Made by a program: the position numbers and the translations under genes
NCBI RefSeq assembly: GCF_041886205.1
Contig: NZ_CP169029.1
Reading direction: 5' to 3' (one strand)
Source: Escherichia coli
Lineage (GTDB): Bacteria > Pseudomonadota > Gammaproteobacteria > Enterobacterales > Enterobacteriaceae
Length of the DNA: 64,000 nt
Shown: positions 36,315 through 64,000 of the stretch, in pieces
Layout of the letters: every line of letters begins with the position of its first letter
How positions within the stretch are numbered: position 1 is the first letter of the stretch
The notes under the pieces: model-generated
Database searches by the model: none
Told to the model about the DNA's origin: nothing
What the model saw: the letters and a program-made list of their open reading frames with translations, nothing else

Positions 36315-36375
36315 TAACGCTACGCCTGTAAGGCGCACTGGCAGTTCCCTCTCCCCTCTGGGGAGGATCTATTAA

Positions 36376-36407
36376 GTTCTGTTGATGTCAACTGATTTCA
36401 ACAGAAC
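36376..36407 (+). terminator. Stem-loop 3' of glnH (possible intra-operon attenuator; alternatively part of island attachment site)
   Basis: Perfect 10-bp stem gttctgttga/tcaacagaac with 12-nt loop. Confidence 0.4.
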
Positions 36408-36542
36408 TCTATCCTCTCCATTAAATCTCCTTTAAAATAAGGCATTATCAGAAATTACTCCTCTCTGGATGTCAACCATCCTCCATGAACATCAAGATGA
36501 TTTCGGGGGCTATTGTGGGGGCTACTTTTCGGGGTTAACATC

Positions 36543-37715
36543 ATGCCACTTACTGTTCGACAAATTGAGTCGGCTAAACCCGCTGACAAGGATTACAAAC
36601 TTTCCGACGGTCAGGGACTTTATCTTCTTGTCAAAAAATCCGGCGCCCGTTACTGGAATCTGAAGTACCGGTTTGCCGGTAAGGAAAAGAAACTGGTGAT
36701 TGGTGTCTATCCGGACATATCTCTGGCTCAGGCTCGTCAGAAACGGGATGAAGCGCGTAAACTCCTGGCTGAAGGAAAAGATCCATCATATGAGAAACAG
36801 GCGCGAAAACTTGCCATCAGGGAAAGTATGGCCTGCACATTTCGCACCATTGCAGAGGAATTACTTACCCATATGGCTCGTCGATGGACAACTGGTTACC
36901 AGGCAGACCAGCGTGCAAGACTTGAAAATCATGTTTTCCCTGCAATTGGGAATCGTCCGGTGACCGGGATCCGCCCCATGGAAATACTGAACGTCCTGAG
37001 AGTTATTGAAGAACAGGGAAAACTTGAAGCACTGCGTAAAACACGCCAGCTCTGTGCGCAGGTTTTTGATTATGCCATAGCAACAGGACGTGCAACCGTT
37101 AACCCGGCGTCAACACTCAGCGGGGTACTGCTTCCTCCTGAAAAACAACAGCGCAGGACACTTTCTGAAGAGCAGATGGGGGCTTTCATGCATCAGATGA
37201 CGGCTTCCGGAAATCTGATGTCGCTGACAACGCGAATGCTGGTTCTTACTGCTGTTCGCACCGGAGAACTGCGGCTGGCGACCTGGGATGAAATAAATTT
37301 CACGGAGGCCCTGTGGGTCATTCCGAAAGAAAGAATGAAAATGCGACGACCGCATGTTGTACCGCTTTCACGTCAGGTACTGGCGTTACTGAAGGAGATA
37401 AAAACACGCACTGAATCGCGTAATTCCGCCTTTATTATTCCCGGGGCATTCAGAAAAGATCGCCCCCGAAGCCGTAAGTGTATCAATGAATTCCTTGAAC
37501 AGTCAGGCTGGCATGCCCTGACAACAGCTCACGGATTTCGTCATACCTTCAGCACCATTCTCCATGACCATGATTTCAGCTCAGCCTGGATTGAACTCCA
37601 GCTTGCCCACGTTGATAAAAACGTCATGCGTGGCACCTATAACCACGCCCAGTATCTGGATGGTCGCCGTGAAATGATGCAGTGGTATGCTGACTACATT
37701 GATTCGCTTTCTTAG
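36543..37715 (+). CDS. P4-family tyrosine integrase
   Basis: N-terminus MPLTVRQIESAKPADKDYKLSDGQGLYLLV typical of P4-like Int; C-terminal catalytic region with HxxRH (HGFRHT) and conserved Y. Confidence 0.88.
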   Translation: MPLTVRQIESAKPADKDYKLSDGQGLYLLVKKSGARYWNLKYRFAGKEKKLVIGVYPDISLAQARQKRDEARKLLAEGKDPSYEKQARKLAIRESMACTFRTIAEELLTHMARRWTTGYQADQRARLENHVFPAIGNRPVTGIRPMEILNVLRVIEEQGKLEALRKTRQLCAQVFDYAIATGRATVNPASTLSGVLLPPEKQQRRTLSEEQMGAFMHQMTASGNLMSLTTRMLVLTAVRTGELRLATWDEINFTEALWVIPKERMKMRRPHVVPLSRQVLALLKEIKTRTESRNSAFIIPGAFRKDRPRSRKCINEFLEQSGWHALTTAHGFRHTFSTILHDHDFSSAWIELQLAHVDKNVMRGTYNHAQYLDGRREMMQWYADYIDSLS

Positions 37716-37751
37716 CAAACCTGATGAATCAGTGACATAAAAATAATGAAT

Positions 37752-37790
37752 AACCATCTGGCCCCGAAAGCCGGATGGTTTTATTTATGT
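37752..37790 (+). terminator. Intrinsic terminator after integrase
   Basis: 11-bp stem aaccatctggc/gccggatggtt (one G-U pair) followed by T-rich tract. Confidence 0.6.
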
Positions 37791-37999
37791 TTTCTTTTTT
37801 ATTTGCTCACATCTTCTGAACTTCCCCTGCAGACAATAATCTGAACACCAGATATAGAGCCACTCATGAAACAAAATAGAATTACATTGAATAATAACTT
37901 ACATTTTTTGTTACATTCATTCCATATTTGTCCCTGGTTGATTGCCAGAACTACGCCGTGATGCATGATAGGAGAATTAGATAATAAGAGAAGAAAAGT

Positions 38000-38629
38000 A
38001 TGATTCGGGTAGTGCTGGTGGATGACCATGTGGTGGTGCGCTCTGGCTTCGCACAATTACTCTCTCTGGAAGACGATCTGGAGGTCATTGGTCAGTACAG
38101 TAGTGCCGCGCAGGCATGGTCGGCATTAATCCGTGATGACGTCAATGTTGCCGTCATTGATATTGCCATGCCGGACGAAAACGGCCTCAGTTTGCTTAAG
38201 CGCCTGCGTGCACAAAAACCGCAATTTCGCGCCATTATTCTTAGCATTTATGACGCGCCAACCTTTGTGCAAAGCGCGCTGGATGCCGGTGCCAGCGGGT
38301 ATTTAACCAAACGCTGTGGGCCGGAAGAGTTAGTGCAGGCGGTGCGCTCGGTCGGGCTGGGCGGGCATTATCTCTGTGCCGATGCGATTCGGGCTTTACG
38401 CGGCGGCGGGCAACCCGCCCAGGCGCTGGAAATTCTCACCCCGCGAGAACGTGAAGTGTTTGATTTACTTGTCAAAGGAGACAGCGTTAAAGAGATCGCC
38501 TTTAAACTCGAACTCAGTCATAAAACGGTACATGTGCATCGCGCCAATGTGCTGGGAAAACTGAACTGCCATAGCACCATTGAACTGGTGCATTTTGCGC
38601 TCGACCACCATCTGCTGGCGGGGCATTAA
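38000..38629 (+). CDS. UhpA-like response regulator (NarL/FixJ family)
   Basis: Receiver domain (DDH, conserved D) plus LuxR-type HTH; clear similarity to E. coli UhpA over full length. Confidence 0.85.
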   Translation: MIRVVLVDDHVVVRSGFAQLLSLEDDLEVIGQYSSAAQAWSALIRDDVNVAVIDIAMPDENGLSLLKRLRAQKPQFRAIILSIYDAPTFVQSALDAGASGYLTKRCGPEELVQAVRSVGLGGHYLCADAIRALRGGGQPAQALEILTPREREVFDLLVKGDSVKEIAFKLELSHKTVHVHRANVLGKLNCHSTIELVHFALDHHLLAGH

Positions 38630-61683: not shown

Positions 61684-61935
61684 TTAAGCCCCAGATCGTC
61701 TAGGATTAGAACCTGTATTTTTCTGTTTCAGATATTTTAGCCAGCTACCATCAACACGTCCCTGAGCCCGCTGTTCCAGTAACCGCCCGGTTCTACAGTA
61801 CCGGACGCTGTGTTTCTGTCGACATACCTGTTCGCCCGGCACATTGGCTATCCAGCTATTGCCGCATCCTGTAGGCTCCGTTATCAGCAGGTTTTTCTTG
61901 TGGATTATGTAATGACCGTTCAGCAGTTCCCTCAT
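61684..61935 (-). pseudogene. Remnant of an IS21-family IstB-like helper ATPase
   Basis: Degenerate Walker A region NLLITEPTGCGNSWIA followed by ...VRYCRTGRLLEQ; upstream frame broken. Confidence 0.4.
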
Positions 61936-62653
61936 CTATTCAGCTCCCAGGCCTCTTGAAGCCGGATAACGCAGTCCTTCCGCTGTTACCTGATATTTCA
62001 GGCCGGTATTTTCTCTCAACTGTACCACTCGACTAGTTTCCCTGCTCAGGAGTTCGTCATCAACCAGCAGCGTCAGTCTCTCCTAGAGCGACAGTTCGCC
62101 GTCGGTCCGGAGGGGGGGCCAGCTGTCGTATCAGGCTCCCAGCTAGATAATATTTTTATTCTATCCTAGCGTGACCACCCGTTTTTTCTGCCCGCGCAAT
62201 TGCCAATCCGTACTGATTTTGAGATGAAGATGGATATCCACTTCATCTTGATGCTCTGTGCTGCATTCGTCCAGTGCTTTATGGATTGCTTTCTGCATCA
62301 GGCATCGTGCGTCACGGGAAATTGGTGCTATGACAGGCAATTGCTCAGTCCGGTTGGTGATTTGTTTTAATTTGGCGATTGATCAGATCGCACAATTCGG
62401 GCTAAGCTCCCTCAAAGGGAGCTACTATTCTGCGCAACTATATAGTATAGTACCAGCCGACGAGGGATATTTAAGGCAAGTTAACATTGTAACCAGAGCT
62501 GTATGGAGAAACTGTTGTCCCACTCTCCCCAGATATGTGCACGACGAAGGCCAGCACTAAGAAAAATAACATGTTGTCGGCGAATATACTCTATCAAAGA
62601 TTATTCTCCTCATCCTGAAAAATAAGGTTTTGTAGCGCCTTTGATAACATCAA

Positions 62654-63043
62654 TTACCTGAACTTTTTATGCCCTTCTATTCTTATTTTATGCATTTTCA
62701 TTACCGAGTTTGGAACATCTGAAATATCACCTGATACTACTTTTTCTTTTGCCTTAACAATTTCATTATTTAGTTTCATTAGCTCATTTTTATACTCACC
62801 CCCACCTTTCTTATCATCATGGGAAATCTTTTCAGGAAGTGATTTCATTGAGTCATTAACAGCGAGCTCCATAATTTCAAGAGCATCAATCATCTCTTTT
62901 TTATTCGTTGACGACTGTAAAATACCAATATTATCAGCGAGTATCTGCATATTTTCACCAAGCTCTTTTGCAGAAGATATATTTCCACCCCCAAAATATA
63001 ATAATAAGGTACTACAAATTGTTAAACATTTTACTTTTTCCAT
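62654..63043 (-). CDS. Cytochrome b562-like protein (CybC family)
   Basis: 129 aa with signal peptide; four-helix-bundle pattern alignable to CybC (NM..L.DN...DAL..M...Y...R at C-terminus). Confidence 0.65.
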   Translation of the reverse strand: MEKVKCLTICSTLLLYFGGGNISSAKELGENMQILADNIGILQSSTNKKEMIDALEIMELAVNDSMKSLPEKISHDDKKGGGEYKNELMKLNNEIVKAKEKVVSGDISDVPNSVMKMHKIRIEGHKKFR

Positions 63044-63053
63044 ATTCTATCCT

Positions 63054-63073
63054 TACAGGGGGAGACTCCCCCT
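63054..63073 (-). promoter_or_regulatory. Intercistronic stem-loop between catalase-peroxidase and cytochrome b562 genes
   Basis: Perfect palindrome cagggggag-ac-tccccctg directly upstream of the cybC-like SD (aagga). Confidence 0.5.
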
Positions 63074-63081
63074 GTGATATA

Positions 63082-64000
63082 TTATTTTTTAGATAAATCA
63101 AATCGGTCATTATTCATGACTTTATTCCAAGCATTAGCAAAATCATGAATAAACTTATCTTGAGCATCATCTGACGCGTAAACTTCAGCTACAGCCCGTA
63201 ATTCAGGATTTGAACTGAATATTAAATCTACAGAGGAAGCTTTCCATTTAAGAGTACCGCTCTTACGGTCATATCCATTATAGACATCCTCATCTTTATC
63301 TGATTTGCTCCAGTAGGTTCCCATATCCAGAAGATTCACAAAAAAATGATTATTCAGCGTACCCGGAGTCTCAGTAAATACCCCGAGAGAAGAATGATTA
63401 GTATTAATATCCATAACACGCAATCCACCTAACAGCACTGTCATTTCTGGAACAGTTAGATCAAGTTTACTCGCTTTATCAATCAGACTTTCAACAGGTG
63501 AAGTATGGTTCCTGTTTTTTGCATAATAGTTTCTGAAGCCATCTGCAGTAGGCTCCAGAAAACTGAATGATGTAATATCTGTCTGTTCCTGAGAAGCATC
63601 AGTTCTTCCTGGTTTGAATGGGATTTCTAGTTTTACACCTGCTTTAGCAGCTGATTCTTCGATAGCAGTATTACCCGCCAGTACAATTAAATCAGATAGT
63701 GAGACTTTCTTCCCATTAGACTGCTTTTTATTAAATTCTGACTGTAATGAAACCAGGGATGTCAACACCGTTTTCAAATTTTCAGGTTCATTGACTTCCC
63801 AATTTTTTTCTGGCAGCAAGCGGATACGGGCACCATTATTTCCTCCTCGATAATCAGTTACACGAAATGTCGAGGCTGAAGCCCAAGCAGTTTTTATCAG
63901 ATCAGAGGACGGAATTCCTGACTTAATGATCTGCATCTTGAGGGATTTTATATCCTGACTATCGATCATAGTGTAATCAGCAGCAGGAAGTGGATCCTGC
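63082..64000 (-). CDS. Catalase-peroxidase (KatG/KatP family), C-terminal portion; 5' part beyond window
   Basis: C-terminal domain blocks [58 protein letters not shown] runs off the window edge. Confidence 0.85.

Follow-up and report, generated by a model that had tools for sequence, protein, structure and literature searches.

Immediately downstream of glnH, an Escherichia coli chromosome (contig NZ_CP169029.1, assembly GCF_041886205.1) carries foreign DNA where glnP and glnQ would be expected. The stretch that was analysed, referred to throughout as the window, comprises 64,000 nucleotides of one strand; an earlier note, made from its letters alone, had proposed an accessory island, with a P4-type integrase gene, that begins at position 36315, directly after glnH, and splits glnHPQ. 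The evidence assembled here makes it very probable that the foreign DNA is a genomic island of about 63.4 kb, mosaic in make-up, which its own P4-like tyrosine recombinase inserted into the spacer between glnH and glnP. The proposal of a split glnHPQ is thus borne out at both ends: the near-isogenic strain wlxctx60 retains the empty site, and glnP and glnQ stand beyond the right attachment site (attR) in GenBank record CP057953.1. The features at the left end, which includes the left attachment site (attL), are as follows.

35568-36314, + strand: glnH, the last core gene before the island, with its own promoter region and stop codon kept (annotation in matching E. coli records)
36351-36365, no strand: attL core, the 15-bp palindrome CTCCCC-TCT-GGGGAG, 37-51 bp past the glnH stop (alignments to empty sites)
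36366-36542, + strand: island arm beside the integrase gene int, or P' arm (k-mer comparison of both arms)
36543-37715, + strand: P4-like tyrosine integrase of 390 amino acids (Pfam Arm-DNA-bind_3, Phage_int_M and Phage_integrase; NCBIfam PRK09692, 1.4e-80)

Breakpoint and empty site

The core genes to the left (ompX, yliM, rhtA, dps, glnH) follow one another in K-12 order, and the same upstream synteny is found in thousands of E. coli genomes. As had been read from the letters, this synteny reaches glnH without glnP or glnQ following; indeed, glnP, glnQ and ybiO have no match anywhere within the 64-kb window. A megablast of window 33000-40000 against 5,426 complete E. coli genomes matched nearly all of them, and in almost all genomes the match to ordinary E. 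coli ends at window position 36365 (query base 3366). Core synteny therefore extends 51 bp past the glnH stop and the first island-specific base is 36366; the island does lie after glnH as proposed, but it does not start at 36315, since the attachment core (36351-36365) still precedes it.

Over its left 24 kb the window matches E. coli wlxctx60 and 6EVA with 100.0% identity, and in wlxctx60 glnP, glnQ and ybiO come directly after glnH, which provides an empty site in a near-isogenic genome. Window and wlxctx60 are identical through ...CAGTTCCCTCTCCCCTCTGGGGAG, after which the empty site continues with AGGATTAGGGTGAGGGG... and the window with GATCTATTAAGTTC...; alignments to K-12-like empty sites give the same breakpoint, 36365. 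The junction between glnH and the integrase gene, taken as present where a 600-bp probe was fully covered, occurs in 18 of the 5,426 complete genomes. Presence in some strains, together with absence and an intact target in close relatives, is what characterizes a genomic island.

A gene for transfer RNA (tRNA) or transfer-messenger RNA, the usual though not obligatory neighbour of an integrase-mediated island, does not adjoin the glnH junction: ARAGORN found neither in the whole window. An Rfam scan of 35000-64000 gave no match, and the glnH-glnP spacer and the junction fit no curated RNA family.

The attachment core and its repeat

The bacterial attachment site (attB) is a palindrome of 14-15 bp, (C/T)TCCCC-NNN-GGGGAG, which appears to form the first hairpin of an intergenic repeat like BoxC/TMECO. 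The palindrome pattern occurs at a single place in the window and not at all in shuffled sequence. Its 14 bases at 36352-36365, TCCCCTCTGGGGAG, are repeated at attR beyond the window, at 11853-11866 of locus L047 (CP057953.1); the island is thus bracketed by a direct repeat, whose right copy is read in CP057953.1 (1 mismatch in 11,347 bp) and not in the window, within which no second copy of the core was found.

The TMECO consensus is CCCTCNCCC-N3-6-GGGNGAGGG-N3-GGGNGAGGG (PMC4666352). The empty gln site reads CCCTCTCCC-CTCTG-GGGAGAGGA-TTA-GGGTGAGGG and differs from this consensus by one mismatch (A for G, in GGGAGAGGA), because of which the gln spacer does not figure in the K-12 table of PMC4666352. 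The K-12-like empty ycjD-fabI and yjdP-phnP spacers contain CCCTCGCCCCTCTGGGGAGAGGGTTAGGGTGAGGGG, an exact TMECO match, and are the TMECO elements that Holder et al. 2015 (PMC4666352) number 9 and 22 in their Table 1; some 14 K-12 TMECO copies contain CCCC-N3-GGGGAG, these two among them. The loop triplet between the two half-palindromes varies among sites (TCT, TAT, TTT, GCC). Crossover would take place inside the 14-bp identity, and the junction carried by a circular form of the island (attP) would read ...AAGAAATCTCGCCAT-TCCCCTCTGGGGAG-GATCTATTAAGTTCTG....

The integrase and the island arms

The earlier note had placed a P4-type integrase gene about 230 bp past the glnH stop; its ATG at 36543 lies at 229 bp, and the gene, 178 bp from the core, reads inward from attL. 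The Pfam architecture precomputed for this exact protein has the three domains of a P4-like integrase, and the PRK09692 match falls below the curated cut-off. The predicted catalytic residues (R, H-x-x-R, H/W, Y) are present in VRTGELR, HGFRHTF, LAHV and RGTYNH, as read directly off the translation. The integrase shares 97.2% of its amino acids with the gln-site enzyme of strain 2/0, 82% with the ula type and 54% with the pheU type. The exact 390-residue protein was found in 258 blocks of the assembly collection; 25 of the contigs were read, about 20 with glnH context and 5 with yjdP context.

In the P' arm, GGGGGCTA stands at 36505 and 36517, TCAACTGA at 36388 and CCTCCATG at 36480; all four are also found in the far arm. 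The GGGGGCTA copies form pairs in the same orientation, 12 bp apart and each after CCTCCATG, at window 36505-36524 and at L047 11773-11792, and comparable GGGGGC pairs lie upstream of the int genes of tRNA-targeting relatives from other genera. These pairs are likely candidates for arm-type integrase binding sites. An AlpA-like protein, encoded in the distal part of the island, could serve as the recombination directionality factor. A consensus scan revealed no promoter-like site at attL.

Right end, size and composition

The right boundary had been expected beyond the window, and neither a second attachment core nor glnPQ occurs within it. GenBank CP057953.1, which was reached through the window's cytochrome b562 protein, shows 1 mismatch in 11,347 bp against window 52654-64000 and has the arrangement of the insertion sequence (IS) ISCro1 and porin gene specific to the window. 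There, the island continues beyond the window with katG (full, 737 amino acids), an IS66 element, an ImpA_N/VasL remnant and a NERD/UvrD helicase, followed by ProQ-like, AlpA-like and H-NS-like genes (the last at L037 14410-14850), and it ends in a CP4-type module made of a YeeP-like GTPase, DUF932, antirestriction, RadC, CbeA/CbtA and DUF4942 genes. After the DUF4942 gene the sequence reads ...TCTCGCCAT-TCCCCTCTGGGGAG-AGGATTAGGGTGAGGGG..., and intact glnP (219 amino acids) and glnQ (240 amino acids), ybiO, rlmF, mcbA and fiu come next. The right end, the direct repeat and the displaced glnPQ, all of which the earlier note had advised looking for, were thus located in one record, and the DUF4942-core-glnP junction recurs in seven further draft genomes.

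The perfect 14-bp direct repeat brackets 63,434 bp; the previous estimate of at least 27.6 kb holds as a lower bound, but the total is about 63.4 kb. A comparison of base composition, likewise recommended at the outset, sets the island apart from the core (guanine plus cytosine (GC) content 0.478 versus 0.504); the island is a mosaic whose values range from 0.35 to 0.60 per kb.

Alternative explanations

The window on its own shows one junction only, with the right end outside it, as would be the case if a mis-join in the assembly had placed island DNA after a glnH that is really followed by glnP. However, the identical junction, base for base, appears in many independent assemblies, including some with different glnH-flank alleles, and in 18 complete genomes, and the complete chromosome CP057953.1 has both ends with the direct repeat; the probability of an artefact is negligible. 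Precise excision by an integrase would restore attB, and an empty site alone therefore gives no polarity, which leaves room for an ancestral order glnH-island-glnPQ that was precisely deleted in most E. coli. Against this stand the occupation of only 18 of 5,426 complete genomes, the unrelated cargo among those occupied (pap/ireA in 2/0, TPR/EcsC/sitA in ECCNB12-2, fus/afu in the window), the occurrence of the identical integrase and cargo at yjdP-phnP as well, the presence of the cargo at pheU with another integrase in strain JML285, and the GC mosaic of 0.35-0.60; an ancestral arrangement has next to no chance of being correct. The earlier note had itself named these two readings as threats to its proposal, and neither agrees with the data: an artefact does not fit the roughly 20 of 25 contigs that show glnH context, nor an ancestral state the mere 18 occupied genomes.

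Two elements of the IS66 family lie in inverted orientation in the window and the island is rich in IS remnants, so that an inversion or translocation between IS66 copies, of the kind seen in Shigella, might have parted glnH from glnPQ without site-specific recombination. Yet the breakpoint falls within a 15-bp palindrome that precedes an integrase gene by 178 bp, it coincides with no IS end (the closest IS is 12.7 kb away), no IS terminal repeats or target-site duplications occur at 36365 or beside glnP, and the other end beside glnP has the same 14 bp in collinear order. Such a rearrangement is very improbable. Only slightly more credible, and still highly unlikely, is an integrated prophage or P4-like phage satellite in place of a genomic island; the P4-like integrase, the AlpA-like gene and a distal module resembling those of CP4-type cryptic prophages (YeeP-like GTPase, DUF932, antirestriction, RadC, CbtA/CbeA, DUF4942) would suit it, but capsid, terminase, tail, primase and Psu/Delta-like families are all missing from the Pfam lists across the 63 kb (although no search with PHROGs was made) and the cargo consists of metabolic, regulatory and envelope genes and IS elements.

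Several points weigh against the preferred reading of a genomic island inserted by its own integrase. The right end is read in CP057953.1, reached by exact-protein look-ups, and the identity of that record to the window is established for 52654-64000 only. Strain 2/0 has the loop triplet GCC at both of its attachment sites, while empty sites have TAT (K-12-like) or TCT (wlxctx60), and the attR of locus L048, unlike that of strain 2/0 with GCC at both ends, retains TAT; the loop triplets thus conflict on the position of strand exchange. The route by which the island passes between cells is not explained by its Pfam-listed genes, since none of those called across it belongs to the relaxase, coupling protein or type IV secretion families of an integrative conjugative element or to a phage packaging family. 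That the island would be mobile at present, and that its insertion would alter glnPQ expression, are both predictions from sequence.

Landing sites and relatives of the integrase

At glnH, yjdP, ycjD, lptG and ulaE every junction has the form ...C(T/G)CCCC-NNN-GGGGAG followed directly by GAT(C/T)TATT.... The identical 390-residue integrase, with the same uhp/afu cargo, is found downstream of yjdP in the yjdP-phnP spacer (drafts L059 and L062, around 9800-10000), where the junction, GGTCCCCTCGCCCCTCTGGGGAG joined to GATCTATT, falls within a canonical TMECO repeat (empty site at L070 6281). Another single integrase protein, WP_001131672.1, occurs with the same TPR-gene neighbour both at glnH (ECCNB12-2, L009) and downstream of lptG (CM2, L007), and a close variant of it lies between ycjD and fabI (strain 135, L068).

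Islands of the ula site carry a sister integrase with about 82% amino acid identity, the core CTCCCC-NNN-GGGGAG and arm sequences similar to those of the window, and some share its afu cargo (for example, CUPS04 at 94.8% nucleotide identity). Their target differs in that it lies in the coding sequence of ulaE, at codons 14-19 (GCG-CTC-CCC-GCC-GGG-GAG; L001 8001-8018), and has no TMECO flanks; integration truncates ulaE. These islands occur in both orientations (L001 versus L008, L065 and L067), with int beside ulaD or, in CUPS04, beside the 3' part of ulaE. By comparison, islands at the intergenic repeat-type sites (glnH, yjdP, ycjD, lptG) have a single orientation, with int beside the C-rich stem. 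Because the four repeat sites are used one way and the bare ulaE palindrome both ways, the asymmetric flanks of the repeat may help to set the direction of insertion.

Relatives of the integrase were sought in a collection of one genome per species (100,044 species), in which absence is weak evidence; none exceeds 55% identity. In 52 of the 60 relatives (48-55% identical) that were scanned for tRNAs, a tRNA gene ends 160-400 bp upstream of int on the same strand, and most of the remaining eight show a tRNA 3' fragment upstream of int; the tRNAs concerned are Phe, Arg, SeC, Thr, Gly, Asn and Ser. The absence of a tRNA gene at the glnH junction is thus indeed unusual for a P4-type integrase, as the earlier note had remarked. 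A BoxC-type junction was not found outside E. coli in this collection.

The tRNA-targeting P4-like integrases (pheU/pheV, selC, argU, thrW and glyU types) have the same domains, an int gene 160-400 bp from the attachment core that reads inward, and paired GGGGGC-type motifs. Unlike them, the integrase of the window appears to target the hairpin of a dispersed intergenic repeat, with several alternative chromosomal sites. The gln/ula clade, seen here only in E. coli, looks like a target-switched offshoot of these enzymes. Taken together, these comparisons suggest that the clade may have switched from tRNA genes to the CCCC-N3-GGGGAG hairpin of the BoxC/TMECO ("intrastrand triplex") repeat, and that one integrase may use several sites (glnH-glnP, yjdP-phnP, ycjD-fabI, lptG-yjgR and a look-alike in ulaE); to this joint reading we give somewhat less than an even chance.

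Origin of the cargo

The island at tRNA-Phe (pheU) in JML285 (NZ_AP024114.1) shares 99-99.8% nucleotide identity with window 37522-64000, including both IS66 elements, aphA, the porin, cytochrome b562 and katG; its integrase, however, is just 54% identical to that of the window. Homology starts at 37522, in the final 190 bp of int; there, ...YNHAQYLDGRREMMQWYADYIDSLS is common to all these integrases. On the simplest reading, the cargo would have joined the gln-specific integrase by homologous recombination, the donor being an island that normally resides at tRNA-pheU: an exchange in the conserved 3' end of int would have swapped the integrase/att module and re-addressed the cargo from the pheU island to glnH.

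JML285 also has an extra 4.6-kb segment (L003 17166-21767), with genes for a YadA-family adhesin and an OmpA-family protein, that is absent from the window; the two flanks of this segment have a 219-bp repeat in common where they overlap (window 59072-59290), suggesting that the window lost it by deletion between repeats. Conversely, JML285 and several drafts are without about 155-174 bp of a transferase remnant that the window keeps (46289-46466); this stretch is bounded by the 12-bp direct repeat CAAAATGACGGG, consistent with slippage deletion in JML285 and the drafts. The pheU island of JML285 abuts a truncated Orn/Lys/Arg decarboxylase fragment past a copy of IS100 (L003 1-165 and 44560-44635); cadC and cadB are not annotated at that junction, and part of the cad locus may have been lost there.

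Gene content of the island within the window

The content of the window agrees with the description given beforehand: accessory genes, IS elements (ISEc8, ISCro1), a pseudogene (the transferase remnant) and AT-rich stretches poor in open reading frames (ORFs), whose GC is 0.35-0.43 (47-49 kb and 52-56 kb). From left to right, the features are the following.

38000-38629, + strand: UhpA-like response regulator (NCBIfam)
38629-40170, + strand: MASE1 sensor kinase related to UhpB (Pfam MASE1, HisKA_3 and HATPase_c; NCBIfam)
40243-41559, + strand: UhpC-like glucose-6-phosphate receptor of the major facilitator superfamily (NF008661, 588 bits against a curated cut-off of 564)
41556-42587, + strand: AfuA (solved AfuA structures 4r72 and 8x1a, E ~1e-167 to 1e-171)
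42655-44733, + strand: AfuB, part of the afuABC sugar-phosphate ATP-binding cassette transporter (41556-45791)
44733-45791, + strand: AfuC (above the NCBIfam cut-off)
46110-46754, - strand: truncated phosphoethanolamine-transferase (sulfatase-like) pseudogene, a weak CptA-family match to the C-terminal part only; partial pseudogene in JML285
49085-51460, - strand: ISEc8 (IS66 family), 99.4% identical to annotated ISEc8; tnpA 51059-51460, tnpB 50715-51062, transposase 49127-50665
52966-53700, - strand: AraC-family regulator of 244 amino acids related to HilD, GadX and YdeO (NCBIfam; Pfam HTH_18), in an AT-rich stretch
55195-55917, - strand: paralogue of the class B acid phosphatase AphA (TIGR01672, 287 bits against a cut-off of 196)
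56587-59271, + strand: ISCro1 (IS66 family), 99.7% identical to annotated ISCro1; tnpA 56640-57317, tnpB 57317-57664, transposase 57684-59255
59515-60603, - strand: OmpC/PhoE-like porin paralogue (NF007841, 527 bits against a cut-off of 484); ompC in the JML285 annotation
62654-63043, - strand: cytochrome b562 homologue (PRK15058, 1.9e-19, below cut-off; Pfam Cytochrom_B562)
63082-64000, - strand: 3' part of the catalase-peroxidase gene katG, with no stop up to the window end (NCBIfam positions 424-724 of 725); it continues outside

The two-component pair (38000-40170) corresponds by gene content to the regulatory pair of O-island 20 (OI-20) of enterohaemorrhagic E. coli (EHEC), and with the UhpC-like gene and afuA, afuB and afuC it forms one cluster of the OI-20 type. 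On the strength of its homologues (PMC4546632), this cargo is a putative module for the uptake of sugar phosphates and the sensing of fucose or sugar phosphates. DUF1187 genes are among the remaining cargo. Apart from the AraC-family regulator, window 47400-49000 and 51500-55100 contain only short ORFs without an NCBIfam match. In related draft islands, a small gene of the heat-stable enterotoxin EAST1 family (PF08090) lies beside a transposase fragment (L021 8428-8544, L023 6197-6313, L040 7195-7260); it was not seen in the CP057953.1 version of the island.

Predicted consequences for glnHPQ and wider meaning

As the core is duplicated by integration, glnH keeps a CTCCCC/GGGGAG hairpin after its stop. 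In CP057953.1, intact glnP and glnQ lie 63 kb downstream of glnH, behind the last gene of the island, the DUF4942 gene, which is on the same strand; simple consensus scans, which are not decisive for expression, revealed no sigma-70 promoter on the + strand, nor any terminator, in the 300 bp that lead up to glnP from the DUF4942 gene. In such an arrangement, glnH would still be transcribed from its native promoter while glnPQ would need transcripts that read through from the island, or else a promoter as yet unmapped. The island parts the gene for the periplasmic binding protein of the high-affinity glutamine transporter from the genes for its permease and ATPase, and may thereby uncouple their regulation by nitrogen status; at the same time, it brings a putative module for sugar-phosphate sensing and uptake whose counterparts in related pathogens have been tied to colonisation of the gut.

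Beyond this locus, one branch of the P4-like island integrases appears to insert at a short repeat hairpin rather than at a tRNA gene, which gives it several landing sites per genome, and islands at such sites would escape island-finding tools keyed on tRNA genes. If BoxC targeting is real, it would account in concrete terms for some of the "genomic instability" at TMECO loci that has lacked an explanation; if module swapping is real, island cargo could be re-addressed through the conserved 3' end of int.

Comparison with published systems

Integration at this site has been described before. The six integration sites that Biggel et al. 2020 (PMC7686366) give for papGII islands, with insertion-site-specific integrases, include "gln: glnP-glnH" and "ula: ulaE-ulaD", and Royer et al. 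2021 (PMC8097792) likewise refer to integration in the glnH-glnP interval. In the uropathogenic E. coli strain 2/0, a 58-kb island (papGII, ireA, evgAS) sits between glnH and glnP with TCCCCGCCGGGGAG at both ends; it shares with the window island the attB, the orientation, the arm motifs and a CP4-like distal module ending in a DUF4942 gene, although, unlike in CP057953.1, an ISEc10 element stands between that gene and attR. The window island thus has the glnH-glnP position and the gln-specific integrase of the gln-site papGII pathogenicity islands but not the papGII operon: pap, ireA and evgAS were not seen in it, and neither the window annotation nor the Pfam lists of the remaining 36 kb contain usher, chaperone or Pap families.

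As regards the cargo, AfuABC transports glucose-6-phosphate and fructose-6-phosphate as well as sedoheptulose-7-phosphate (Sit et al. 2015, PMC4546632), and in EHEC it is encoded in O-island 20, adjoining a sugar-sensing two-component system (PMC4546632). OI-20 of EHEC O157:H7 and the afu locus of Citrobacter rodentium have the same gene set as the window (two-component pair, UhpC-like gene, AfuABC), a likeness of gene content; unlike OI-20, the module of the window is the cargo of a putatively mobile island at glnH.

Holder et al. 2015 (PMC4666352) described raised variability ("genomic instability") around TMECO loci and never found integrases there. In the literature searched, the term TMECO was not found outside that paper, nor were the BoxC/TMECO link and the use of several sites by these integrases. 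The site at glnH is thus already published and belongs to the uncommon non-tRNA kind; the window island is new cargo at it and no new kind of system. To these known systems, the present analysis makes modest additions, namely that the attachment site appears tied to the BoxC/TMECO repeat, that several sites are used by one integrase and that integrase modules may have been swapped between islands.

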